Below the pieces are notes generated by a model. It had not been told where the DNA came from and made no database searches. It worked only from the letters and a program-made list of their open reading frames with translations. Positions 1 to 63,808 of a DNA stretch of 64,000 nucleotides are shown piece by piece; within the stretch, counting starts at the first letter, position 1; each line of letters starts with the position of its first letter. The DNA is taken from NCBI GenBank assembly GCA_018093385.1, contig GCA_018093385.1_4808.1, one strand, 5' to 3'. This DNA comes from a phage. A program made the translations under genes and the position numbers.

Positions 1-83
1 AAAAAAACAATTAACTCCATTTTGAATTAATTTAAATTAATTTTTTTCTACATCCTCATACTTATACTAAACTTATATTTATA

Positions 84-140
84 CGTATCATCCGTAAGAT
101 ATAAGTAAAAACAAAGACTTGCGGCAATACGGATGATACG
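84..140. repeat. 13-bp perfect inverted repeat CGTATCATCCGTA (84-96) / TACGGATGATACG (128-140) with 31-bp spacer, preceded by an AT-rich tract (1-83); copy A of an iteron-like element
   Basis: Read directly; same arms and spacing recur at 16034-16089. Confidence 0.8.
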
Positions 141-315
141 TCACGATACGCTTCAACCAGCCAGCAGCGGCTAAGTCATTGATTTGCATAACAAGCGGCA
201 AAAGGGATGGATTTCTTTTATACGTATCAAACAGTACACCACGCACCACGGTCCGCAATTCTATTTGCACTATGATTTGTGTATGTTTATAGCCATAATG
301 AACATCAATCTGCAC

Positions 316-344
316 TTGAATATAATGTCCATCCATTGTATAAT
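316..344 (+). promoter_or_regulatory. sigma70-like promoter TTGAAT-N17-TATAAT upstream of TerS-like gene
   Basis: Consensus hexamers with 17-bp spacer; first 14-bp repeat sits near predicted +1. Confidence 0.5.
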
Positions 345-364
345 TCACACTATTAATTTGCACT

Positions 365-853
365 ATGGGATTTTGCACTATGAGTCAAGATTATGTAGCG
401 ATGCCTGAAGACTTTGAAGACCCGCGATTCGCAGAGCACAATCAGGCTTTATTCGATGAGTTCATTGACCTTGTTATTCAGGGCCATGACATGCGCGCAG
501 CTTTTGCACTAGTATTTGGAATGGAAGTTGCAACGGATAACTACACTGGCCAGCGAATCCTTTGCGCGCAACGCAATCCATACTACAAAATGCGCTTCAA
601 AAAGCGTATGGAAGAGATGCCACTCAAGGATTTGTGGAGCGTAAAAGGCGCAATTCACAATTTGGTTAAGCTTGTGCGTGATCCAGAAGTCGCGGCGTCA
701 GCCAAGCTTAATGCGATTCGTGAACTGAATATCATCTACGGCATCACGATGATTGACGAAAACGGTAACAGCAAGATGGGCCGTTCTATGGACGATTTCT
801 ACAAGGATTTTGGAGAGGCGGCCAAAGAAGGAGAGCAATTCTCCCGCCACTAG
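365..853 (+). CDS. Terminase small subunit-like DNA-binding protein (putative); start may be ATG 380
   Basis: HTH-like N-region and C-terminal AASAKLNAIRELNIIYGI resembling the conserved TerS segment; embedded in repeat array. Confidence 0.45.
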   Translation: MGFCTMSQDYVAMPEDFEDPRFAEHNQALFDEFIDLVIQGHDMRAAFALVFGMEVATDNYTGQRILCAQRNPYYKMRFKKRMEEMPLKDLWSVKGAIHNLVKLVRDPEVAASAKLNAIRELNIIYGITMIDENGNSKMGRSMDDFYKDFGEAAKEGEQFSRH

Positions 854-967
854 CCAATTTGCACTATGAAACGGCCCTAGAACACATTGCCTCCACTTCT
901 AGGGCCATCGGTAATACGACGGGGAAGGTTGCAACCGTAAACGCGTTAGAAAGTGTATTATTATAAG

Positions 968-1231
968 TCATCTTTTAGTCACCTTACGTAACAATTTACG
1001 ACCTTCAACCGTCCAATCGAACGATTCCACCAGCAGATTCGCACTATAACCTAAGACGATGCGCCCTTTCTCGTTATCGACCCGCCAACAAGTCTCGAAT
1101 AGCATTCGATTTGCACTATTAACTATTGCCGCAACTCGCGTAGGATAAGCGCAATTTGCACTATGGTCGTAAAGGGATAAGGTGCGACCACTTCCGATGG
1201 ACAACGTAGCGATGAGAATGAGCGTGTTCAT
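968..1231 (-). CDS. Hypothetical protein (weak; overlaps repeat array)
   Basis: 87-aa ORF, modest SD. Confidence 0.3.
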   Translation of the reverse strand: MNTLILIATLSIGSGRTLSLYDHSANCAYPTRVAAIVNSANRMLFETCWRVDNEKGRIVLGYSANLLVESFDWTVEGRKLLRKVTKR

Positions 1232-1281
1232 AAGCCACCAATTTGCACTATGAAAAGCGACCCCGAAGGGCCGCCATTCGA

Positions 1282-1908
1282 TTAGATAATCTGGAAGGTG
1301 TAGGACTTGTTGCCGAACTCGAAGTTCAAGCGTCCAGCTTCTTTAAGCTTCATGCGGAAGCGAATATGCTTGCTATCCGGTAAGCCCAGCGCGGCGAACG
1401 CTACGCGGACCGATTTGAACTCTCCTACACCCTCGACCATAACGCCGTTACGGGTGAGACGCTTTTGCGCCACTTCCTTATTATCCCAACTTTTTGCAAT
1501 ACCTTCGCTATTCGAACGGCGATGGGAAGGAGTGCCATTTTGCACTACGCAATTTGCACTATCGTTCAGGCCGCTTTTAACGAAGGCTTCATACTCTTCG
1601 TCGGTCATCGCATCGAGTTCTTCCTGAGTCGGCTCGGCCTTTTTAACGACCGCACGCGCCTTATGCGTTTTTACATCGCTGGACACTTCCTCGCGCGGCT
1701 TCGCGTCGGGAATGGGCGATTCGTTGGACGGCTCATCGAGCGCGTTTAAGGACTCGATTAACGCGATTACGCGAGTCTCGGCGGTCCGGCGGTCCGCAAA
1801 CTTCTTAATCGGTTTTGAGCCGGAATTTGCATTATAGAATGCAACGAGGTCGACGGTCTTAGTTGCGATAACGTCGCCGCTAGTCGAGAAACGATTTAAG
1901 CTAACCAT
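1282..1908 (-). CDS. Hypothetical protein
   Basis: 208-aa ORF with AGGAG SD 6 bp upstream of ATG. Confidence 0.55.
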   Translation of the reverse strand: MVSLNRFSTSGDVIATKTVDLVAFYNANSGSKPIKKFADRRTAETRVIALIESLNALDEPSNESPIPDAKPREEVSSDVKTHKARAVVKKAEPTQEELDAMTDEEYEAFVKSGLNDSANCVVQNGTPSHRRSNSEGIAKSWDNKEVAQKRLTRNGVMVEGVGEFKSVRVAFAALGLPDSKHIRFRMKLKEAGRLNFEFGNKSYTFQII

Positions 1909-1988
1909 AATAAACTCCTATTTGTTAGGGCGCTAGGCGCGAAAGAATTTTATTAAAGCGCCGCGCACGACGCTCTAAAAATCCTCTC

Positions 1989-2273
1989 TTACGCTTCGAC
2001 GAGGGAGAAGGTCTCAAATTCTTCTTCGCCCATAACGAGTAAGATATTACCGATTTCGACCGCTTCGAAGAAATATCCGTTAACGTTTACTTCGAAGGCT
2101 TCGCGGTCCGATTCCGGTAACGCCGCGTAAAGTTTAAAAGCCTCGGCGACCGTTACCCCACCAGCCTCGATAGTTTGGTCTACGTTCGCGGCGTAGACTT
2201 CGGATAAAATTTGTTTTACGCCGTAGTTCTCGACGATAGCGTTACGGATAGAAGAAACGTTAAGAATAGCCAT
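1989..2273 (-). CDS. Small hypothetical protein, paralog family member 1 of 3
   Basis: 94 aa, AGGAG SD; related to 2499-2801 and 2909-3199 products. Confidence 0.55.
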   Translation of the reverse strand: MAILNVSSIRNAIVENYGVKQILSEVYAANVDQTIEAGGVTVAEAFKLYAALPESDREAFEVNVNGYFFEAVEIGNILLVMGEEEFETFSLVEA

Positions 2274-2342
2274 TTTAAACTCCTAGTTCTCGACGGGCGT
2301 TAACGACCTATTCGTTAACTCATCCCGTCCCGATATGAGTAC

Positions 2343-2370
2343 ATTATAATATAGTGTAGAAAAAAGTAAA
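2343..2370 (-). promoter_or_regulatory. Promoter TTTACT-N16-TATAAT driving 1989-2273
   Basis: Shares core aaaagtgctttact...tacact...tataatgt with the promoter at 2813-2841. Confidence 0.5.
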
Positions 2371-2414
2371 GCACTTTTTCGATAAAAATGAGATAAATTA
2401 TTTTATCTTTTTTC

Positions 2415-2442
2415 TTTACTTCTTCATACACTCGCGTATACT
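2415..2442 (+). promoter_or_regulatory. Promoter TTTACT-N16-TATACT driving 2499-2801
   Basis: Same promoter family as 2343-2370 and 2813-2841. Confidence 0.5.
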
Positions 2443-2498
2443 TGTTTATATCGAGACGGGCGATGGCCCTTCCTTCTACTAGCATCGGGAGTTTTATT

Positions 2499-2801
2499 AT
2501 GACCACTTTAATCTCTTCTATCCTTACTTACGACGAAGACCGTTTAACCGTTCGCTCTCTTATCGCCGCCGTTAACGCGGAACTAGAATCCACCATTATT
2601 AAGGTCCGCGCGGTCGCTTTCGTCGGCCTTTCCTTCGACGATATTAAGTACGCCGAACGTAGCGCCATCCGCTTCGCGAAGACCGACGACGAAGCCGTTA
2701 CCCTTATCGAGACGGTTACGCCGCGCGGCGAAGCGTTAATTATCGTCGAGTATATCGACGTAGAAGGCGATAAGGCTTATAAATATTTTATTGCAGAATA
2801 A
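2499..2801 (+). CDS. Small hypothetical protein, paralog family member 2
   Basis: 100 aa from internal ATG with GGGAG SD; ORF track gives a longer 2442 start. Confidence 0.5.
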   Translation: MTTLISSILTYDEDRLTVRSLIAAVNAELESTIIKVRAVAFVGLSFDDIKYAERSAIRFAKTDDEAVTLIETVTPRGEALIIVEYIDVEGDKAYKYFIAE

Positions 2802-2812
2802 CGAAAAAGTGC

Positions 2813-2841
2813 TTTACTTCTTCGTACACTAAGACTATAAT
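2813..2841 (+). promoter_or_regulatory. Promoter TTTACT-N17-TATAAT driving 2909-3199
   Basis: Consensus hexamers; third member of repeated promoter family. Confidence 0.55.
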
Positions 2842-2908
2842 GTTTTATATCGAGAGGGGATGAGGTAGCGAATAGGTCGCTACCCGCCCGACCAACTAGG
2901 AGATTATT

Positions 2909-3199
2909 ATGATTACTTTAGCCGCTATCCGTTCCGCTCGCGTCGAGACTTCCGAAAACTCTAACGTATTTGGCGAAACCTTAGAGAGCGTTTATCTCTC
3001 TAACGTAGACGCAACTATCGAACCTATTTATGAGCCGATCAACTTCCTCGACCTTTACAAGTATCGCGACGAGGACATCGTATCATCCCGCGTAACGATT
3101 AACGGCTTCGTCTATACGATTACCGAAATCGGCGGCGAATATCTCGCTGTACCGCAACTCGGCGGCGAAGTAACTTATTTTAAAATTGTCTCCTTATAA
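2909..3199 (+). CDS. Small hypothetical protein, paralog family member 3
   Basis: 96 aa, AGGAG SD. Confidence 0.55.
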   Translation: MITLAAIRSARVETSENSNVFGETLESVYLSNVDATIEPIYEPINFLDLYKYRDEDIVSSRVTINGFVYTITEIGGEYLAVPQLGGEVTYFKIVSL

Positions 3200-3219
3200 T
3201 ATCCTTCCGTTACTAATAG

Positions 3220-3244
3220 GCCGCGCTTAGTCGCGGCTTTTCTT
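3220..3244 (+). terminator. Rho-independent terminator (GCCGCG-loop-CGCGGC followed by TTTTCTT)
   Basis: GC stem plus T-run directly after stop of 2909-3199. Confidence 0.6.
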
Positions 3245-3895
3245 CGTCCCTATCTCGATGCGCTTCTCCGCGAAAACTCCTTTATCCTTCCCTTCGTCGT
3301 CGCATAATCTTCGTCGAGATGCTCCTTAGTTCGCATAACAGGTATTACGTTAAATGGAGAACATCGCGTAAGTCCTTGTTTTATATAGACACCTATATCG
3401 GACCGTTAAGGCGGGTCGCGTAAGTCGTTGTTTTATAAAGGTGCAAAACTTTCCCTTCGTTCCGAACTAAAACGAGAAATATGCCGACCCTTCGCCCGAA
3501 AATAGTACGCATGCGAAATTACACGCATCTAGAATAATCCCCACCGATATTATACTACACGCAATCATTCGCTTTCGAATCATTATGCTTCATATTATTG
3601 TGTATCGAATCATTCGCTTTCGAATTGTAACGCTGGAAACTGTAACGGCGATTGATTATTGCGTTCGTGTGGTTTTTATGGCATGGGTCTTTTGGTGCGT
3701 TTTGGTACTTGATGAAATTTGCAGTACACTAATCAAAATACGACACATTTGGTCCACTAACTTTTCAAGAAAAAGTCCTGGACAGTACCGTACTATTTTG
3801 TGCCCACAGTAAATTTGCAGTACACTCCTGCGCGGCAGGCAAAAGAAAGGGCCGCCACAGCGACCCACGATTCACGGTTAAATCAGCAACACCCA

Positions 3896-4291
3896 CTATT
3901 CGCTCTTATGGGCATCACCAAAGCCATCCGCAATCTGGCTGATCAATGATTCAATGGACACAGTTTTACCAATTGATCGAGCGGTAATAGCAAGCATATT
4001 ATCAATCAAACCATGATTGGATGCATATGGTCCAGGTTTTGAATCATCTTCAGGACAACCAAAAAGCTGGTCGCGCAAACTTTCGAGAGAACGCTCAATA
4101 TTTTCCAGCTTCTCTTCTAAATCAGATTGGCGACGTAAAACCCATGTTAAGTCTCGGTTGCCGACTTCCAACCCATCAGAATCGCAAGCTGGAACGTCAA
4201 TTTTGATGCTGCCACCAAAGGCCATTCCGCTGCCTTTAGTATATGTGTTGTGAATAGAATCATTCTTATTTGACATATCATTACCTTTCAT
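3896..4291 (-). CDS. Hypothetical protein (start may be second ATG at 4276)
   Basis: 131-aa ORF. Confidence 0.45.
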   Translation of the reverse strand: MKGNDMSNKNDSIHNTYTKGSGMAFGGSIKIDVPACDSDGLEVGNRDLTWVLRRQSDLEEKLENIERSLESLRDQLFGCPEDDSKPGPYASNHGLIDNMLAITARSIGKTVSIESLISQIADGFGDAHKSE

Positions 4292-4349
4292 GAGGGTGAT
4301 TAACTTGAATTATAATAAAGCCGCATGGCGCGGCATTCAAATCGATTTA

Positions 4350-4598
4350 TTAATTGTGACGATTTGATTCATCAATCGATACCAATTGTGCAGGGTCGCC
4401 GGATACCGTTGCGCCGACGATACCCATCTGAGAGAAAAATTCTGAATAGACTTCTTTCCAGTACTTGCGCGCTGCTTCCTGGGCTTGACCTTTGCGCTTG
4501 AAGCTTTTGCCTTGAAAGATGAAACGGTCACTTGTCGCGCGATACTCCACCACGCCTTCCAGCCATTGTAAGAATGCTACTGATTCATTTTGATTCAT
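4350..4598 (-). CDS. Hypothetical protein
   Basis: Internal ATG with GAGGT SD; longer ORF-track version overlaps upstream gene. Confidence 0.4.
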   Translation of the reverse strand: MNQNESVAFLQWLEGVVEYRATSDRFIFQGKSFKRKGQAQEAARKYWKEVYSEFFSQMGIVGATVSGDPAQLVSIDESNRHN

Positions 4599-4605
4599 GT
4601 TAACC

Positions 4606-4998
4606 TCAAAGGTCCAAGAAAAATTTAAGCCAGCTTTCCGCAATCTCGCGGCCAGTAGCCAATCGGTCTGTCTTTTCCATAGGTCTGCACACGCCACAGG
4701 GTAATCCTTTCTGTAGGCGTGTACTATTGCCAATTTTTACCCAAACTTGGCCAGCTTGGTCGACATAAGCTTGGCAACCCATGATTTCGAGTCGTTGTAG
4801 ACACTGGCGAATCGTTTTCAGCTTCTCACCGGACCGGATAGAGCGCGGTCGCGACCGCTGACCGTTTTTATTCACTGTACGCTTGGCGACCGGAATATCA
4901 TTGGTGCGCTGCGGCTTGGGTCGGTAATAAGCCTCTTCGCCAGGAGTCGCACCTGGCGTCAGTTCACGCTTAAGCGCCTTTTCAATGTCTATGATCAT
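4606..4998 (-). CDS. Hypothetical basic protein
   Basis: 130-aa ORF, Arg/Lys-rich N-half. Confidence 0.45.
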   Translation of the reverse strand: MIIDIEKALKRELTPGATPGEEAYYRPKPQRTNDIPVAKRTVNKNGQRSRPRSIRSGEKLKTIRQCLQRLEIMGCQAYVDQAGQVWVKIGNSTRLQKGLPCGVCRPMEKTDRLATGREIAESWLKFFLDL

Positions 4999-5092
4999 AA
5001 TTTATGCCGCAGCAGCATGAATTATTGCGTAAACAATTCCTAACAGGGCGACAACGCAAATCGTGCCCCAAAATGCAAAGCGCCGTGCCTCT

Positions 5093-5299
5093 TTATCCAT
5101 TGTCCACTGCTCCAATATCCGTTAAGAACTCGTGCAAAGCACCTTTCTTGTTGAGTTTTTGCATAGTCTTGATATCATCAAGTGATATACTTTGATCGCT
5201 TTGCTGTTTATCAATGCAAACAAGACTGCCTTTGGCCTTGATGGTCATGCCTTTGGCTTCGATACTTTTTACAAAATCTGACAACACTTTAATTTCCAT
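5093..5299 (-). CDS. Hypothetical protein
   Basis: 68 aa, GGAGAAGG SD. Confidence 0.45.
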   Translation of the reverse strand: MEIKVLSDFVKSIEAKGMTIKAKGSLVCIDKQQSDQSISLDDIKTMQKLNKKGALHEFLTDIGAVDNG

Positions 5300-5579
5300 T
5301 AGAGCCTTCTCCGCTGTTAATGTTGTCCAGAATCAAGGTCGGAATTTCATCTTGAGTCCTGACTTTGTAATGAGAAGGCATCTTGCTTTCTAACAATGCC
5401 TGTTCGGCTTCTCCCTTTGTCTCAAAGAGCGGGATGCACCAATCAACTGCGTTGCCATGTTCATTGCCTGTAACGGCTTTCAAAAAGACAAGGCGTTTGT
5501 CTGCAGGGTCGATGCCGCAAATTAAGTATTTTGGAAGAGCCTTTGCTTTCTGAGCCTTATCAACATCTTCAAATTTCAT
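5289..5579 (-). CDS. Hypothetical protein
   Basis: 96 aa, GAGGTG SD. Confidence 0.5.
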   Translation of the reverse strand: MKFEDVDKAQKAKALPKYLICGIDPADKRLVFLKAVTGNEHGNAVDWCIPLFETKGEAEQALLESKMPSHYKVRTQDEIPTLILDNINSGEGSNGN

Positions 5580-5660
5580 AAATCACCTCACTTGTTAACG
5601 TATAATGAGTATAACTTAATTGCGCATAAAGTAAAGGCGCTTTTCAGCGCCTTGAGTGAA

Positions 5661-7994
5661 TTATTTCGCTGATTTCAGCGCGGCTATCTCTGCCTCTAGT
5701 GATTCAACCTTTTTCATCAACTCCTGCACCACGTGCATCGTGTCAAGAAGCATTGGAGTTGTGTCTAGTTGTTTTTGTTCAACCTCTACGCCTTCGCTCG
5801 GATAGAATTTCACCGTTTTTACATACAACGGGTCAATAATCTCTGCTTGTTGAGCGATGACACCCCTTCTTACCCTTTCCTTTTCATCATTGTTGTAAAT
5901 AAATGTCACATATTCCAACGATGAAAGGTTGCTCCATGCTTTTTCAACCGTTCCTGGCTGTATGTCATGCTTCAAATTCTCATCAGAGATGGCATTCTTT
6001 TGAAGAGTATAAAAGCTATCTGATCCAAGAATTGATACAGAGAAAAACACATCATGAGAGTTAGGCTGTATGTTCATCCTTGTCTGGTACTGCGCATTAT
6101 CATCTCCAACGACGAGCCAAGTGCCCTGCGCAAAACTTCCGTTATTGTTGTGGATCAAACCGTGGTGAAGCGTTGTGGCATAACCTGTATCAACCTGTTG
6201 ACCGCCGCTAAAAAGACTGTTGAAAGCATAGTTTTGACCCATTGACTGTCTCACCGTTGCATAGGTGCCGATTCTTGTTCCAGTCTCACTCCAAGACATT
6301 AAGCTTCCATATCTCGCGGCGAATCTGTCGCTGCTAAGAGTTCCTGCATCATCAAATGCAAGGTCTTTAGTCACCCCTTTTGTTTTATTGTACACAGACA
6401 GTATTGCATAATAAAATCCATCCATGTATGCATCGCATCGCAATCCGGCATCAGCTTCAACAACAGTACCAATTTTGTATTGTGCCCTTACTTGCCCTGA
6501 AGACCCCTTAACCCCAGAGCCTGGTCGAACAGAATCCGCATTGATAACTGACCATTGCGTATTCGCGGCAACAAAGCCACCAGATGCACGAATCACCCAA
6601 ACACCGACAAAGTTGCGCGGCACGATTTCAGCCGCTGATCTTCCGTATACAGGGCTTGATCGAGAAGCGTCAAAGTTTGTTTGTATGAATCTTGAACCAG
6701 AACCTGCTGCTGCTGGAGAGTCCCCAGAAGTGATCGACTGAAAAGCGCCATTAGTCGCCACCTGACTTGGCGCAGAAGCCAACGTGACCATTGTGCGCGG
6801 CGCGGAGTAAGTTATATTTGGTGCACCTGACTCAGAAACGACTCCATTTGATGATGGATTGCCTCCATCACCTCGACCGAACAGGGCCTGAATAGAACCC
6901 GTCTGCACGCCGTTTCGGTCCGGCACACGAAATGTTGTCGTTCCGTTACCTAAAGAGTATTTACCGCGTTTCGCTGGGTCCGCTAACCAATCTGCATCTG
7001 CAATAGGTGAAAGCATTTGCGCATACGCCCAAAGTTCAGGCCAGTCAGCGCGGTTTAACAACTGCCCATCAGCAACGACTTCATACGGTTGAATATAAGC
7101 ACGGCTGTCGCGTAAGTGGAAGTCACCGACGCCATAGTTCATAACGCCGTTCATACTTGGTCCAACGGTGCCTGTGTTTACTAAGTTCTCAACCCAACGC
7201 TTGGTCGCGGCATCATGATCGTTTACTGGGTCACCAGCAAGCGGTGTTGCACCTTGTGGACGAATATTCAACCATGCTTGCGCATTGTCGGCTGACCCTG
7301 TGCCGCCCATAGAAGTCGGAACGATGTTTTGATCAGCGACTGTGCCAAATCCAAAAGCGGACTTCATACCCTGAATGGTAGTTTGGCCTGTGCCGCCGTT
7401 GGCGACTGGGATTATGCTTGACTCGGAATAAATCATGACCCAAGGAGACCACGTGCTATTTTGAGCGTTGAATCTTCTTTGGTAAGTATTGTTAATGGAA
7501 TATGATGTGTATTTTTGAATGCAACTTTCGGTCGATACTCCTGTTTGCAACACCTCTAAGACTCCTGCTTGTTCAACAGGATAGTTCAATCCAAAAGAGG
7601 CGGCGCCATCAGAGTTCTGATAATATTGCCCAAACCAGCTGCCGGTAAGAGCATTAAGATTCATGCCGGAAGGAACAGTGCCAAAATTTCGCAAGGTATT
7701 GGTCAAAGTCGCAGCAGTTGTTCGAATGGAAAGCATGTCACCAGCCGCCCATGCACGCGCTGCAGTTCCTTCCTGCGCACGCTGCACGGTTAGCACGTTT
7801 CCAACTACGGCTGTTACTGTGACGATTTCAAATTGGAGGCCTGTTGCAGCGTCGACGATTGTCGCCACTACACGCTCGTTCGCGGCCAAGGTCGGAAAGC
7901 CCGACCCTGAGCGGATTGTGATTGTGGTGTCTGAAGTCGTCGTTGGCTGGGCAAGCGCGACCTCAAAGTTGTTTTTGAATATTAGCCTTGGCAT
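5661..7994 (-). CDS. Tail fibre/tailspike protein with C-terminal intramolecular chaperone (peptidase S74-like) domain
   Basis: C-terminus LKHDIQP...GVIAQQAEIIDP...coiled-coil tail matches the self-cleaving chaperone module; Gly/Ser/Thr-rich body. Confidence 0.7.
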   Translation of the reverse strand: MPRLIFKNNFEVALAQPTTTSDTTITIRSGSGFPTLAANERVVATIVDAATGLQFEIVTVTAVVGNVLTVQRAQEGTAARAWAAGDMLSIRTTAATLTNTLRNFGTVPSGMNLNALTGSWFGQYYQNSDGAASFGLNYPVEQAGVLEVLQTGVSTESCIQKYTSYSINNTYQRRFNAQNSTWSPWVMIYSESSIIPVANGGTGQTTIQGMKSAFGFGTVADQNIVPTSMGGTGSADNAQAWLNIRPQGATPLAGDPVNDHDAATKRWVENLVNTGTVGPSMNGVMNYGVGDFHLRDSRAYIQPYEVVADGQLLNRADWPELWAYAQMLSPIADADWLADPAKRGKYSLGNGTTTFRVPDRNGVQTGSIQALFGRGDGGNPSSNGVVSESGAPNITYSAPRTMVTLASAPSQVATNGAFQSITSGDSPAAAGSGSRFIQTNFDASRSSPVYGRSAAEIVPRNFVGVWVIRASGGFVAANTQWSVINADSVRPGSGVKGSSGQVRAQYKIGTVVEADAGLRCDAYMDGFYYAILSVYNKTKGVTKDLAFDDAGTLSSDRFAARYGSLMSWSETGTRIGTYATVRQSMGQNYAFNSLFSGGQQVDTGYATTLHHGLIHNNNGSFAQGTWLVVGDDNAQYQTRMNIQPNSHDVFFSVSILGSDSFYTLQKNAISDENLKHDIQPGTVEKAWSNLSSLEYVTFIYNNDEKERVRRGVIAQQAEIIDPLYVKTVKFYPSEGVEVEQKQLDTTPMLLDTMHVVQELMKKVESLEAEIAALKSAK

Positions 7995-15990: not shown

Positions 15991-16020
15991 ATTCATCGGC
16001 AAAGGATTGCCGCGAGTTTT

Positions 16021-16300
16021 ATACGTATAATGACGTATCATCCGTATCAAGTAAGTTGTTGTTTTCAAAAGAATCTTACGGATGATACGGATGATACGCA
16101 TTGCCGCCGTACTATATAGGAATTCAAATAAATTAATTTAAAATTATATATCTAATTTAATTTTATTTTTTTATAAACTCTTATATATGAAAAGTATCCG
16201 TATCATCCGTATCATCCGTAGCACACCAGTGATAGCGCGGCTTATACACCGATACGGATAAAAATACGCCTCATTTTATCCGTATCATCCGTATCACACT
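16021..16300. repeat. Iteron-like element copy B: inverted repeat CGTATCATCCGTA (16034-16046) / TACGGATGATACG (16077-16089), AT-rich core (16100-16190), direct ATCCGTATC repeats (16195-16221, 16278-16295)
   Basis: Read directly; identical arms and spacing to 84-140. Confidence 0.8.
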
Positions 16301-16352
16301 AATAAAGGCGCGGCTATATCGGTCGTTATACATATTCAAACCATAATTATTG

Positions 16353-16382
16353 TTTGCCTAAGTTTTTTTCATTAGATATAAT
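16353..16382 (+). promoter_or_regulatory. Promoter TTTGCC-N18-TATAAT upstream of scaffold/capsid genes
   Basis: Hexamers followed by GAGGGTGG SD. Confidence 0.45.
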
Positions 16383-16411
16383 ACACAATACTTATTTGAG
16401 GGTGGATGCGA

Positions 16412-17824
16412 ATGCAAACGGCACGCGAAATTGACAAAAATGGATTCTTGACGATTATGGGTTGTCCAATTTCGTCATTTGGCATTTTTGATTATTCTGC
16501 TGGTCAAGTTGGTCTTGATGGTGATCCGAATCGCATCGTAAAAGTCTATCGCCCTGAGTCAGCGGTGAAAGACCCCGAAGCGATAGATTCATTCAAAAAT
16601 ATCCCTTTCATCGACAATCACGAAATGCTTTCTGGATTTGAAGGTGATGAGGATAACACAGCACCCGAAGAGTATGGAGTTGATGGCGTTCTGACTGGCA
16701 ATGTTTATTATGACAAGCCATGGATGCGCGGCGACCTTAAAGTGTTTAGCCGTCGTCTGAAGAAGGCCATTGATTCTGGAAAGGTTGACTTGTCTTTGGG
16801 CTATGACTGTGAATTCATCATACAGTCTGGAGAGTTTGACGGGCAGCCGTATGAAGTGGTGCAGACAACTCTTCGCGGCAACCACATTGCTCTCGTGGAC
16901 GTTGGTCGAGTACCAGGTGCACGGGTGCTGGATGGTCGTTGCTTTGACCATCTTTGTTTGACGACTGTAACACCATCCAACGAGGATTTAGACATGCCAA
17001 AACCGTTAAAAGGTAAAGCGCGTGATAATGCTGTTGAACAGCTGAAATCACTGATCCCTGCGCTCGAACAATTTCTGAATGAAGAGAGTACTGAAGCTGC
17101 TCATCAGGACGAAGTTGAAGTGAAAGCAGAAGAGAAGGACTCAACCGAAAATCGTGAAGAAGTAATGGTTGATCCAGAAGTCAAGGCAGAAGCAGAAGAA
17201 ACCCCAGAAGGTGAAGAGAAGTTTGAAGTTGAAACTGAATCTCACGCCAGCGGCGAACTTCCGCAATTGATCAGCCAAATCGAAGCACTTATTGCAAAAC
17301 TGAAAGGTGGCGCGGTAGGTGATGAAGAAGAAGTTGAAGCCGAAGTCAAAGACGAAGAAGTTGAAGTCAAGGCTGAAGATGTATCACCTTGCGACAAAGC
17401 TGAAGATGTGGTTAGCGGCCTGCAAAACAGCAACGTAAAGGGGGCTTCGGTCGAAAAAGATGACAAACCGACAAAAGCGGCGAAAGCGTCGCCAGGTCCA
17501 GCAAAAGGGGAACACTCAATGGCATCTGATTCAGCAGTTGCTGCTTTCTACGCTGATTCTGCTCGTAAGAATAGCCTCTACCAGCGCCTGTCTAAAGTTG
17601 TTGGTGCCTTTGATCATGCAACTATGGACTCCAAGTCCGTAGCGAAATATGGCGCTAAAAAGTTAGGCTTGAAGTGCGTTGATGGTGCTGAGTTTGACGT
17701 GGTGGATAATTATCTGCGCGGCGTTGAGCACGGTCAGAAACAGCGTGTAGTCGCAAAACAAAAGGCCGCTGCGGATTCTGCAGCAACTGACGAAGCATTT
17801 GAAGCTTGGTTGAAAGGGGAATAA
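16412..17824 (+). CDS. Scaffolding/prohead maturation protein (acidic repeat-rich)
   Basis: Glu-rich EVEAEVKDEEVEVKAE repeats; immediately upstream of capsid gene; ORF-track start 16406. Confidence 0.55.
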   Translation: MQTAREIDKNGFLTIMGCPISSFGIFDYSAGQVGLDGDPNRIVKVYRPESAVKDPEAIDSFKNIPFIDNHEMLSGFEGDEDNTAPEEYGVDGVLTGNVYYDKPWMRGDLKVFSRRLKKAIDSGKVDLSLGYDCEFIIQSGEFDGQPYEVVQTTLRGNHIALVDVGRVPGARVLDGRCFDHLCLTTVTPSNEDLDMPKPLKGKARDNAVEQLKSLIPALEQFLNEESTEAAHQDEVEVKAEEKDSTENREEVMVDPEVKAEAEETPEGEEKFEVETESHASGELPQLISQIEALIAKLKGGAVGDEEEVEAEVKDEEVEVKAEDVSPCDKAEDVVSGLQNSNVKGASVEKDDKPTKAAKASPGPAKGEHSMASDSAVAAFYADSARKNSLYQRLSKVVGAFDHATMDSKSVAKYGAKKLGLKCVDGAEFDVVDNYLRGVEHGQKQRVVAKQKAAADSAATDEAFEAWLKGE

Positions 17825-53034: not shown

Positions 53035-53877
53035 TTATTCTGCTTGATCGTCGTGCTCTTCGGCATCTGCTTCGGATTCAACATCGATGAACTCGATGTG
53101 GCCCATCTCTTCCAGTTTGCTCAGGTAAGAGCGAACTGAAGCGCCAAACAGCTGATCTTTAACTTTTTCACCCAGCTCGTCGATAGACTGCGGCTGACCG
53201 ATTTCACCTTCTTTGATCGCAGCCAGTACGCGACCACGGGTGGAATGTTCTTGCGGCTGGCTCAGGCCGTTTCCGGTGTAAACAAAGTGAGTTGCTTTAG
53301 CGCGACGCTGACCATTAGCTTTCTTGGCGGCTTTACGCTCTGCAATCGCTTTGCGACGCTCTTCAGCTTCTTTCTTACGCTGTTCTTTCTGTTGTTCTGC
53401 AGCTTCTTTCGCCGCGATCTTAGCAGCTTCACGCTCTGCCTTGCGTTTCGCTTTCGCTTCTTCTTTAGCCTTTTCTTTTTCGGCTTTCGCTTCTGCACGG
53501 GCCTGATCACGTTCAGCCTTTTTCGCCGCAGCTTGTTCAGCTTTCAGGCGCTTGGCTTCTTCTTTCGCCTTTGCCTTTTCAATTTCTTTAGCGGCTTTAG
53601 CGGCTTCACGCTCTGCCTTCTTAGCAGCAGCCTTTTCAGCACGCTCTGCAGCCTTCTTAGCGGCTTCTTCAGCACGCTTCTGAGCCTTCTCGTCAGCAGC
53701 CTGCTTGCGTTTCAGCGCAGCTTCTTCACGCTTGGCTTGTTTTTCCTGCTCACGCTTCTGGCGTTTTTCTTCGGCTTCTTTCTTTTTAGCCAGGCGTTTT
53801 TCTTCAGCCACGCGACGACGTTCTGCTGCGGCTGCTTGTTTTTCTTCTTTAGATAATACTTTGATTGCTTCGGCCAT
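53035..53877 (-). CDS. Lys/Ala/Glu-rich low-complexity protein with globular C-terminal domain
   Basis: About 190 aa of KAE repeats then about 85 aa of normal composition; ATG 53877 has AAGGA SD (ORF track 53883 is GTG). Confidence 0.5.
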   Translation of the reverse strand: MAEAIKVLSKEEKQAAAAERRRVAEEKRLAKKKEAEEKRQKREQEKQAKREEAALKRKQAADEKAQKRAEEAAKKAAERAEKAAAKKAEREAAKAAKEIEKAKAKEEAKRLKAEQAAAKKAERDQARAEAKAEKEKAKEEAKAKRKAEREAAKIAAKEAAEQQKEQRKKEAEERRKAIAERKAAKKANGQRRAKATHFVYTGNGLSQPQEHSTRGRVLAAIKEGEIGQPQSIDELGEKVKDQLFGASVRSYLSKLEEMGHIEFIDVESEADAEEHDDQAE

Positions 53878-54036
53878 ATTCACAGTCCTTAAATAAATTA
53901 GTTTATTTTATATTCCCCGTTTGGGATAACTTAATTATGCCTTCAGTCGCCGCCAGTAGCAACTAAAAACTATGGCGGCAATGCCACTTTAATTAAACTG
54001 ATTTTCAGTTTTATTTTTCGTAAATTTACGTCAACA

Positions 54037-55707: not shown

Positions 55708-56790
55708 ATGGCTAGTTTAAGAGAAGAAGCAAAAATAATTGAAGAGTTTTTAACAGAACTCCAAAGAGGCATCCCAGAAGATGAGCGCGTCATGACGGTG
55801 TTTGCTCCTGAAGCAACGGTGCAGACTGATGAGCGCGGCAAGAAGATCAACAGCAGCTTCTGGCCTAAGCCTTGGAAGTTGGGCAAGCCGCTCATGCAGC
55901 ACCAAAACGGCTATGCGTGCATCAGTTCAATGCGTAAGGCTCCCAACCCAAAGACGGGTGAGATGCGATACTGGCGTACAGAGTCAGCCTTTGGTCACGG
56001 CATGGCGATGATGGTCGACGACATCGGTCACGGTAAAGGGTCCAAAGGCGATTTAGATTTGGAATTCTTTTTTGAGCGACTGAAGCCGACTGTCATCGTC
56101 GAGACTTCACCGAACAATCACCAGCTTTGGTACTTCTTTAAAGAACCGATTGACCATCTTATTCAGTTCAAAGCGTTCCTTGGGTCTTTCGTTAACATGG
56201 TACTCAAGAAGGGCGGCGACAACACGATTAAAGACGTAACGCGCGTGGGTCGTGTTCCTGGGTGCATCAACAACAAGCGTGTGACTCACGACGGCCCCTA
56301 TAAATATGTCGATGAGAACGGCGACCCGTTCCGCTGCCGACTTGTCCATGCAGACTACTCATTGCGCTACACCATCGAAGACATTTGTCAGGCATTTGGC
56401 TTTCACGTCGTCATGCCGCAAAAGCGTGAAATTCAAATTGACGTTGATGAATACAAATACGACGCTGTTTGGTATAAGATAGCCCAGCAAATCCTTGCGC
56501 GCAATAAGATGGGCGAGGGGTCTGATGGCGATGTTGTTGAAAACATGTCGGGCAAGTGCCGCATCATCTGTCCTTGGGGTGAAGAGCATACCAACGGCGA
56601 CCCGTATGGCGCTTACTTTCGCGGCCCTATCCCTGGTGCAGAACATGAGTTTGTGTTCGGTTGCGCTCACGACTGTCACCGGAAAGGGGAAGGCAAGAAA
56701 GGTTGGACTGCTTTTGTTGAAGCAATCGTCATGCCTTATATTGAGAATCAACTTGACATGATAAATCGTCGTGCAGGTGGCATAAAATAG
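55708..56790 (+). CDS. Primase-polymerase (archaeo-eukaryotic primase-like) with Cys/His-rich C-terminal region
   Basis: Motifs MVDDIG, SPNNHQLWYFF, RVPGCINNK; C-terminal CPWGEEH...CAHDCH. Confidence 0.6.
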   Translation: MASLREEAKIIEEFLTELQRGIPEDERVMTVFAPEATVQTDERGKKINSSFWPKPWKLGKPLMQHQNGYACISSMRKAPNPKTGEMRYWRTESAFGHGMAMMVDDIGHGKGSKGDLDLEFFFERLKPTVIVETSPNNHQLWYFFKEPIDHLIQFKAFLGSFVNMVLKKGGDNTIKDVTRVGRVPGCINNKRVTHDGPYKYVDENGDPFRCRLVHADYSLRYTIEDICQAFGFHVVMPQKREIQIDVDEYKYDAVWYKIAQQILARNKMGEGSDGDVVENMSGKCRIICPWGEEHTNGDPYGAYFRGPIPGAEHEFVFGCAHDCHRKGEGKKGWTAFVEAIVMPYIENQLDMINRRAGGIK

Positions 56791-58100: not shown

Positions 58101-59771
58101 ATGTCAATTAATAATGACAATCTTCCAGAGGATACAGGTGATGAATTTGGTGCAATCTTTGACGAAATTCAAGATGCAGGCGTTTCGGAAGAAATGCAGG
58201 CAGCAGAGCAGCAAGGCACCAGAGCTAAAATCAGCCTTCAACATAAAGCTGTTGAAAAAGATTCAGAGCGCATGGAATGCTACGGTGAAGAAGACTTGGT
58301 TGAAAGAGCACGCTTGCTCGCCTCACTTCAGGTAATCAAGTTCCCTCACTACAAGCCTACCAAAGATGACTTCGTTCTACAGGCAGACCGGACGAGTGAC
58401 ATGAACCGTTATGCGGTGTTCGACGCGTTGTTTGATAAGGGAAGTGGCGTCGTTCCATTCCCTCACAAAGATACTTTTCGTGGGCGCTTAGTCGACCATC
58501 GCGGCGAAACATTCACCGACCGTACTTTGGAAGTCACAGAGATAGTTGCCGCTGTCGACGCAGCAGGATTGTCCAACCCAAACTCACGTCAGGTCGCTCA
58601 ATCCTATAAGGAATGGGCCATGCGTTATCAGCGCGACGACCTGATGGACTTCTTCTACAAGAAGCTGCCTGAATGGGACGGTACTGCGCGCATCGAGAAA
58701 TACCTTATCGAGCTATTCCGACCGTTCGATACAGAGTTAAACCGACAAATCGGTGTGTATTTTTGGCTATCGCTCTACAACCGCCTGACCAACCCTGGCT
58801 GTCAAGCGCCAATCTCCATCGCGCTCATCGGCGGCCAGAATGCAGGGAAGAGTTATTTTAGCAAGCTGCTTTGCGAAGCTATTATGAACGACCGCCACGC
58901 AACACCGATTCCGTTGAACTTAGCCGCGCAAAACTTCAACCCGTTCTTGCGAGCTATTACGGGTCGCTCAATTATCGCGAACGTTGGCGAGATGACAGGC
59001 TTTAAAAAGGCCGACATCGAAAACATGAAAGCATTCCTGACTAAGACGGAAGATGACCTGGACTTCAAATTTGAAGATACGCAGGTTAAACCACGCCAGT
59101 GGATTGCTATCATGGACGGCAACGAATACGCAGGCATGCAGCGTGATGACACGGGCAACCGTCGTGTGTACCCTATCTTTGTTGGCCAACTCGCCGACAA
59201 GGACGGGCAACCGAACTGGTCGAAAGATTTCCAAGCTGACCTTTCCACTTTGAAAGAAGACGTTTGGCAGTTGATGGCTGAGTGCGCTGCATGGATGGAG
59301 AAGCACGGCGAAGCAGGTTACAATGCATTTGTTGGTGAAACATCTCGCATGCTTACTGAGTTTAGTAAGAACGAAATGGAACGTGCGCGCGGCGTTATTC
59401 GTGATGAGATGGTGGACAACGACCTTGTTGAAGTCGTCATCACCGCGCCTTATGACCGACATCACAGCGGACGCTGGCACATCACCAGTGGTGCTATTGC
59501 TATGGGATTCAGAGCGAAGTGTGGCAAGTCGCCTTTCTCTCGTACCCTTGCGCCGCACATGTCGAAGCTTGGTTTTGAGCCTGCAACCTATCGCAACCAG
59601 CGCGGGTACTTTACGCCGCTGATTAAGAATGAAGCAGGAGAATACATTTCTGATTTGATGACCATCTTAGCGTATCTTATCCGCGATGAGTCTGACCCTG
59701 AAGATATTGAATTCTTGAAGAAGGTTATTGAGCGTAAACGTTCTTTGGGAAGAGATAAGGATGAATTCTGA
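58101..59771 (+). CDS. VirE-like P-loop NTPase (primase-associated helicase-like)
   Basis: Walker A LIGGQNAGKS; GGAGG SD; follows primase-polymerase gene. Confidence 0.55.
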   Translation: MSINNDNLPEDTGDEFGAIFDEIQDAGVSEEMQAAEQQGTRAKISLQHKAVEKDSERMECYGEEDLVERARLLASLQVIKFPHYKPTKDDFVLQADRTSDMNRYAVFDALFDKGSGVVPFPHKDTFRGRLVDHRGETFTDRTLEVTEIVAAVDAAGLSNPNSRQVAQSYKEWAMRYQRDDLMDFFYKKLPEWDGTARIEKYLIELFRPFDTELNRQIGVYFWLSLYNRLTNPGCQAPISIALIGGQNAGKSYFSKLLCEAIMNDRHATPIPLNLAAQNFNPFLRAITGRSIIANVGEMTGFKKADIENMKAFLTKTEDDLDFKFEDTQVKPRQWIAIMDGNEYAGMQRDDTGNRRVYPIFVGQLADKDGQPNWSKDFQADLSTLKEDVWQLMAECAAWMEKHGEAGYNAFVGETSRMLTEFSKNEMERARGVIRDEMVDNDLVEVVITAPYDRHHSGRWHITSGAIAMGFRAKCGKSPFSRTLAPHMSKLGFEPATYRNQRGYFTPLIKNEAGEYISDLMTILAYLIRDESDPEDIEFLKKVIERKRSLGRDKDEF

Positions 59772-63312: not shown

Positions 63313-63527
63313 ACGCCGCGCTGGGTAAGTTGCCATTCAATAAGCGTAATGAGTTGCGCATGGTATCGCGCTTTCAACAAACGCATTTATCACTAATCAA
63401 GATTGCAAACAAGGCATACTCTCTAAATTGTCCTGAAGAAGAATGGAAAGAATTGAATGAGCGTCGTAAACAATTACAACATGCTGCATTCAAGCTGCAG
63501 CAATATGCTATGGAGTATGCAAAATGA
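63309..63527 (+). CDS. Hypothetical protein
   Basis: Internal ATG with GAGGTG SD. Confidence 0.4.
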   Translation: MNAALGKLPFNKRNELRMVSRFQQTHLSLIKIANKAYSLNCPEEEWKELNERRKQLQHAAFKLQQYAMEYAK

Positions 63528-63808
63528 AGATGCAAAGATGTCCCCATTGCTTGTCCACGATGCGGCTTACTGCTGAAGAATATTTACATCACGTTAACGT
63601 TTGTGATGCTAATCCTGAAAACTCGACACGTTACTATTATCATTATCATGCGGAAGCAGAAGACGGCTCAGGCGCAACAGGCATCGTCACTACGAAAGAA
63701 ATGGTGATCACAAAAAAGGCGTATGAAAGCCTGCTGGATACAATCAAGGAAGTGTCTGGCAAAGAAATAGTCTGCATTAAATCTTTATCTTTCTTGCACG
63801 AGGTGTGA
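63524..63808 (+). CDS. Small Cys/His zinc-binding-like protein, paralog 1
   Basis: N-terminus MKMQRCPHC...HHVNVCDANPENS. Confidence 0.45.
   Translation: MKMQRCPHCLSTMRLTAEEYLHHVNVCDANPENSTRYYYHYHAEAEDGSGATGIVTTKEMVITKKAYESLLDTIKEVSGKEIVCIKSLSFLHEV

Follow-up and report, generated by a model that had tools for sequence, protein, structure and literature searches.

An iteron-flanked, AT-rich element at the homology-placed left end of a Wifcevirus genome and its twin upstream of the prohead protease gene

Does an AT-rich, repeat-bearing element found at the very edge of a stretch of phage DNA mark a physical end of the genome, an internal replication origin or only the place where a sequence happened to be cut? 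The question is raised by the first positions of the 64,000 nucleotides analysed here (the window), which derive from a Wifcevirus, a PB1-like E. coli myophage, with 92-97% identity to 29 GenBank records (first 3 kb compared), and which stop about 4 kb short of the genome's end. In the initial annotation, the element (copy A, below also element A) was described as starting with an AT-rich tract at position 1, its upstream part being cut off by the window, and, on condition of a linear genome, as possibly marking a physical terminus or the boundary of a terminal repeat instead of an internal origin. For phages with long direct terminal repeats (DTRs), the duplication of the repeat and the choice of the ends are poorly understood outside T7.

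The left end of the terminal repeat

Over positions 1-80, the AT content amounts to 83.75%, compared with a mean of 53.9% (sd 7.2) for segments of 80 nt, and in a scan of the whole window only 0.06% of such segments were as AT-rich, which bears out the description of copy A as opening with an AT-rich tract at the window edge. The truncation had been recognized correctly as well: all permuted relatives have a left iteron block, ATCTTACGGATGATACGGAT(GATACG), with its end some 28 nt before window base 1, and always keep it, although the DNA in this upstream region is highly divergent between subgroups. The full element A comprises about 330 bp with the left iteron block, about 110 nt of AT-rich DNA and the right iteron block; positions 1-140 are the AT tract and the right-hand iteron pair, the left block being missing (Table 1).

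The 12-mer iteron GTATCATCCGTA occurs in eight exact copies in the 64 kb, confined to two clusters (85-139 and 16035-16293). When up to two mismatches are allowed, 15 matches are found where 3.2 are expected, with at least 15 reached in 0 of 100 shuffles, and 13 of the 37 copies of the core hexamer CGTATC fall within 1-260 and 16000-16330, where 0.34 would be expected. If single-stranded, the inverted arms of A could fold into a 14-bp stem (z = -5.3), this high hairpin potential being a trivial result of the inverted repeats. Besides the copy between the arms of A, exact copies of the spacer motif are located at 16053 (+) in copy B and, near the right DTR end, at 3370-3382 and 3422-3434 (+). 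In the degenerate form AAGTYBTTGTTTT, the motif sits between inverted iterons in both A and B and is, by our own comparison, what we take to be an IHF-like site with one mismatch. A known RNA as the identity of the element was ruled out, as neither Rfam at gathering thresholds nor ARAGORN gave a match in the window. Within the AT tract of A, the promoter scan yielded no sigma-70-like candidate, and the GC skew, which tracks gene orientation, gives no pointer to an origin.

The records of five relatives, Mansfield, WFC, WFH, SP13 and Ro157lw, all begin at the same ATTTT, which corresponds to window position 19. [quoted passage not shown] Position 19 is homologous to the first virion bases of these relatives, with flanks that are 92-97% identical, and by this homology the packaged DNA is predicted to start there. 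This start would lie in the AT tract of A, some 46 nt past the left iterons and with 66 nt separating it from the right ones; the window edge is 18 nt outside the boundary. As the cut would fall inside A, the left iteron block would remain in a single place, the internal junction that precedes the right-hand copy of the repeat. On the right, the DTR can be taken to end at about 3692, after the PhageTerm result for Mansfield and the equivalent position in Kyle, or 80 nt further at about 3772, after the WFC record; the right-end sequences of Mansfield and WFC are both present in the window.

These records also bear on the simplest explanation, namely that the edge position is meaningless, the sequence having been cut arbitrarily or its assembly having broken at a repeat common to A and B, and that the element is an ordinary internal feature. 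Copy A is indeed internal in many deposited records, and a 68.5-kb metagenome contig from a close relative (IMG/VR contig 3300045988_152943, our L027, positions 1-27) starts exactly at the ATCTTACGGATGATACGGATGATACGC of copy B. Since the ATCTTACGGATGATACGGATGATACGC block is common to A and B, the assembly of this contig probably broke at the repeat, a caution against reading contig ends as termini. The records with an internal A are, in turn, circularized assemblies of DTR genomes, and that five records in which the repeat was determined or duplicated share a starting base 18 nt inside the window, as well as the PhageTerm evidence for Mansfield and MTx, leaves the idea of a meaningless edge with hardly any credibility. 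In practical terms, the position of the boundary provides guidance for opening, assembling and rebooting such genomes, in which the repeat common to A and B can interrupt assembly.

The suggestion of a physical terminus or terminal-repeat boundary is therefore supported by homology, through the records of the five relatives that start at window position 19. Such a boundary and an internal origin turned out not to be true alternatives: the element, which is whole in the circular map or the concatemer, has the architecture of a Rep-type origin, and its internal twin B has it too.

Table 1. Positions of the terminal repeat, the two iteron modules and the associated genes in the window
Feature	Position	Strand	Remarks
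Direct terminal repeat (DTR)	19 to ~3692 or ~3772		placed by homology with relatives
AT-rich tract of element A	1-82	.	84% AT; bases 1-18 outside the DTR, 19 onward inside
Iteron GTATCATCCGTA, left arm of inverted pair	85-96	+	
Spacer motif AAGTCTTTGTTTT between the iteron arms of A	108-120	-	4 exact copies in window
Iteron GTATCATCCGTA, right arm of inverted pair	128-139	-	
Partial iteron copies	141-150 (GATACG) and 222-229 (ACGTATCA)		
Small terminase (TerS) gene	380-853	+	360 nt inside the DTR; phmmer E = 7e-34 to PDB 7uxe 'Small terminase'
Copy B, complete twin of A	16024-16320	.	iterons on both sides of AT tract
Copy B iterons, left	16035 (+); 16077-16097 (-,-)		
Copy B AT tract	~16110-16190		up to 91% AT
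Copy B iterons, right	16196-16220 (+,+,+); 16251 (-); 16278-16293 (+,+)		
RepB-type primase gene	55708-56790	+	Pfam RepB_primase 1.1e-36; in the neighbourhood of the helicase gene
VapE-like SF3 helicase, SaPI Rep-like	58101-59771	+	Pfam VapE-like 1.6e-28; candidate iteron-binding initiator

Copy B and the modules of other genera

Completed with the upstream sequence of a relative that is 97% identical, A aligns with copy B at 70% identity over 316 columns. The twin is located upstream of the prohead protease gene (16406-17824) and is kept at 95-99% identity in 29 of 29 Wifcevirus records; it also contains, at 16073-16099, the 27-mer ATCTTACGGATGATACGGAT of the relatives' left block, and AATTAATTTAAA is common to the AT tracts of both copies. 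The Wifcevirus cut-site sequence AACTCC/ATTTTG (the stroke marks the cut) is found in A and is absent from B. In the AT tract of B, there is a single weak sigma-70 match (9 of 12) at the edge of the tract, no better than chance. Other AT-rich spots of the window, a divergent promoter region at 11.5 kb and a gap at 55.2-55.7 kb beside the primase gene, are without iterons.

With TerS and the prohead protease as handles, modules were located in other genera, and the pair of A and B recurs in Kylevirus, Myosmarvirus and Pbunavirus, one copy upstream of TerS and its twin upstream of the prohead protease gene. The iterons are lineage-specific, with GTATCATCCGTA in Wifcevirus, GGTTATT in Kyle, ACTTTTCG in MTx and GTAATTTGG in Pbunavirus (SCUT-S1, JG024), and within a genome A and B are 70-74% identical (aligned for Wifcevirus, Kyle and MTx). 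PhageTerm places the DTR of Serratia phage MTx at 1-3566, and the record of Pantoea phage Kyle holds a 3603-bp DTR twice; both left ends are at the equivalent point of the phage's own A, between the left iterons and the AT tract. For JG024, a long-read study located the starts of 36 of 161 reads at 59,376 +/-5, a putative pac site (PMC10913387), which maps inside the homologous A, between its left and right GTAATTTGG iterons. Unlike the DTR phages, JG024 was reported as circularly permuted and headful packaging, and the repeat architecture is not described by its authors. The packaging cut falls inside A in four genera, including this relative reported as a headful packager, with one point in a conserved origin-like module being the left end in Wifcevirus, Kylevirus and Myosmarvirus and the putative pac site in the therapeutically used Pbunavirus. 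The Pbunavirus records PAP8, Pa204 and PA11P1, from a genus reported to be circularly permuted, have their first base some 616-619 nt ahead of TerS, which the alignment to SCUT-S1 places at the AT tract of their own A or within it.

The DTRs published for Wifcevirus, Myosmarvirus and Kylevirus (PMC6563267; PMC6753283; GenBank MK618717, MN038177) agree with the present placement, with a length of about 3.6-3.8 kb and a left end about 360 nt upstream of TerS, but the reports give the repeat length only, and no mention of iteron modules or of a boundary inside one was found in them. Although the Wifcevirus DTR has already been published, the iteron modules, the twin arrangement and the end inside a module appear to be undescribed; a literature search on iterons and origins in PB1-like phages found nothing relevant.

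Beyond these genera, a module of iterons and AT-rich DNA upstream of TerS is also present in metagenomic relatives, Burkholderia WTB, Aeromonas Gekk3-15 and an integrated element of Caballeronia, and the order rep, module, TerS is shared by Pbunavirus, Myosmarvirus, WTB, Gekk3-15 and the Caballeronia element. The latter (positions 1503-6859 of our locus L042, Caballeronia sp. chromosome contig JALQDQ010000018.1) carries first an integrase, next a VapE-like helicase with 43% identity, then the iteron module (GTAACTC) and last a homologue of TerS (27% identity, E = 4e-18), so that the trio of rep, module and TerS occurs also in a prophage-like or satellite-like context. With this order found even in a bacterial integrated element, synteny does not separate TerS from Rep as the binder.

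Candidate binders and functions of the modules

Terminase sites with repeats that flank the cut are well represented by P1 pac, SPP1 pacL-pacC-pacR and lambda cosN-cosB. Repeats around a cut site beside the TerS gene are the classic layout of terminase recognition, and the iterons might accordingly be TerS recognition sites, in which case A would be a pac/cos-type site with TerS oligomers on both repeat sides and TerL cutting between, while B would be a second TerS-binding site, uncut and perhaps used for synapsis or regulation. As in the P1, SPP1 and lambda sites, the cut lies between repeated motifs and close upstream of the TerS gene, which is found downstream of A in every lineage examined, and the inverted iteron pair with its IHF-like, A/T-rich spacer motif resembles the R3-I1-R2 arrangement of lambda cosB. 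This assignment is also favoured by the ends that map within A in four genera (homology for Wifcevirus, Kyle and MTx, published long reads for JG024) and by the cut-site sequence in A, which is retained in a relative with 68% TerS identity and missing from B. In contrast to the known sites, however, the site is not single in the genome, as a complete second copy with the same iterons is present, uncut and far from the terminase genes, and the genome has a fixed DTR of about 3.7 kb instead of cohesive ends or headful permutation. Binding by TerS would leave it poorly explained why four genera keep a conserved, co-evolving twin within their head operon, and iterons do not accompany the right DTR end, where they are absent in Wifcevirus, MTx and Kyle. 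The identity of the TerS gene itself was settled solely via PDB 7uxe, the TerS of Pbunavirus E217, with no function returned by Pfam and PHROGs for this or the other DTR ORFs, and the E217 homologue has, according to a review, no appreciable DNA binding in vitro (PMC9611059). Taking both sides together, we regard TerS recognition as unlikely, if deserving of serious consideration.

A complete alternative is offered by the Rep-like helicase, with its hypervariable, predicted C-terminal winged helix, in combination with an architecture as in the replicons of the SaPI elements. By phmmer the helicase matches PDB 7pds, SaPI1 Rep1 (4e-11), which is also the best Foldseek match in the PDB of its AF2 model (mean pLDDT 83; E = 4e-17, about 479 aligned columns, 451-residue chain). 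Residues 436-504 of the model are predicted to form a helix-helix-helix fold with a beta-hairpin, and in an alignment of 37 homologues the invariant columns end at residue 431, while the last approximately 110 amino acids are hypervariable, as is expected of a specificity domain that matches lineage-specific iterons. In the SaPI ori, which is located directly 3' of rep, an AT-rich centre is flanked by short iterons, at least two per side and in opposite orientation, to which the self-loading helicase Rep binds with its C-terminal winged helix (PMC9371898). The succession of iterons, AT tract and iterons is found entirely within the window for B; for A, the right side is found in the window and the left side in relatives.

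The likeness to the SaPI replicon (PMC9371898; PDB 7pds, 7ola) comprises lineage-specific short iterons of opposite orientation around an AT-rich centre, an SF3 initiator of the VapE type with a C-terminal winged helix, here a predicted domain, for which SaPI1 Rep1 is the best match in both sequence and fold, and, in most relatives, a module directly 3' of rep, as in Pbunavirus, Myosmarvirus, WTB, Gekk3-15 and the Caballeronia element. Wifcevirus differs in this last respect, its rep gene ending at 59771 with packed genes next, A following only about 8.5 kb on and B 16 kb beyond. Further differences are the iterons of 9-12 nt, which are partly contiguous, the presence of two modules per genome and the packaging cut and DTR boundary held by one of the modules, which has not been described for SaPIs.

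Two modules for one initiator have precedents. In P4 (alpha protein; ori and crr) and in SPP1 (G38P; oriL and oriR), one initiator serves two iteron clusters kilobases apart; in P4, this initiator combines a primase-helicase and a C-terminal domain for DNA binding, and one of the two SPP1 origins lies in the late region. The two separated clusters are shared with the genome analysed here, while the iteron sequences are unrelated, and to our knowledge neither P4 crr nor SPP1 oriR coincides with a genome end.

With rather more belief than doubt, we infer that A and B are Rep-type origin modules and that the terminase cut is placed inside A. The Rep-like (VapE) helicase would most likely bind the iterons of A and B through its variable C-terminal winged helix, melt the AT tract and load itself, and the terminase would make its initiating cut in the AT tract of A; the iteron modules are thereby given a named candidate binding protein. 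The assignment as origins is weakened by the distance of about 8.5 kb between the Wifcevirus rep gene and A, by iterons that are 9-12 nt long and contiguous, unlike the 5-6 nt SaPI type, and by the location of B within the head-gene cluster, an unusual spot for an origin. A literature search found no experimentally mapped origin for any PB1-like phage.

The location of both modules upstream of late genes gives rise to another explanation, in which they are operators or upstream regulatory regions of two strong late promoters, for TerS and for the protease-scaffold-capsid operon, where a bound phage regulator would time late expression and the terminus would be nearby merely through gene order. 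Rightward near-consensus sigma-70 promoters are indeed found downstream of A (299-344, TerS) and of B (16354-16382, TTGCCT-17-TATAAT, protease), and in Kyle, MTx and Pbunavirus, too, the modules are followed by promoters of this kind. Nevertheless, only two of many late transcription units have a module, the symmetric layout of iterons, AT tract and iterons is, at about 330 bp, much larger than typical operators, and no candidate regulator was identified. As this explanation also does not account for the ends occupying a common position within the module across four genera, we consider a purely regulatory role very unlikely.

If A and B are Rep-type origins, replication initiation and the formation of genome ends could even be mechanically coupled in PB1-like phages, a speculative extension that we hold to be rather improbable. 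The origin at A would fire into the terminal repeat and re-replicate the repeat at each concatemer junction, by which both neighbouring genomes would receive a repeat copy; the terminase would then cut melted or branched DNA at the AT tract of the origin, where the repeat ends would be determined by a polar array of ATTTGCANTA motifs together with the right-boundary motifs, and B would be the second origin. Such coupling would explain both why the left end or pac start is at the same point of the module in four genera and how the repeat is duplicated.

Motifs within the repeat and further repeats of the window

At the right boundary of the DTR, AAATTTGCAGTACAC is present twice (3716-3730 and 3812-3826), with the two copies flanking the WFC-type end at 3772 and the first lying about 25 nt downstream of the Mansfield-type end at 3692. 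In the equivalent place, just outside their own DTRs, Kyle has AATTTCACAGTACACTAATCA and MTx a weaker GATTTCACAC, and motifs of the AAATTTGCAGTACAC type may be a signal for the right end. Two adjoining repeats of 43 nt, 74% identical and with AATCATTCGCTTTCGAAT, are located at 3547-3634, about 60-150 nt before the Mansfield-type right end.

With up to one mismatch, ATTTGCACTAT has 10 copies, all on the plus strand and all in the first 1.8 kb of the DTR (263-1835), which ignore the strand of the genes, some being inside minus-strand ORFs. The looser ATTTGCANTA has 10 matches in the 64 kb, where 1.2 are expected, again all on the plus strand and all within 263-3822, including 3717 and 3813, and motifs of the GCACTAT type are also found upstream of TerS in the metagenomic relatives L016 and L017. 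ATTTGCACTAT and ATTTGCANTA are candidates for a polar packaging or replication signal or for a phage-specific promoter element. In the middle of the DTR, inverted copies of a cassette (2301-2384 and 2799-2882; 86-88% complementary) carry near-consensus sigma-70 promoters (TTTACT, spacer of 16-17 nt, TATAAT/TATACT) that drive divergent small ORFs and are probably early promoters of host takeover.

Outside the repeat, several families of imperfect direct repeats of 23-33 nt, with spacings of 33, 90 and 99 nt, occupy 53300-53810 within a minus-strand ORF (53035-53883), which suggests a repetitive, low-complexity protein. Towards the end of the window, two adjoining small ORFs (63524-63808 and 63811 onward) have similar Cys/His-rich N-termini, MKMQRCPHC...HHVNVCDANPEN and MRMKRCPYC...QHMTNCDKNPNS, and resemble a tandem pair of paralogues encoding a small zinc-finger-like protein.
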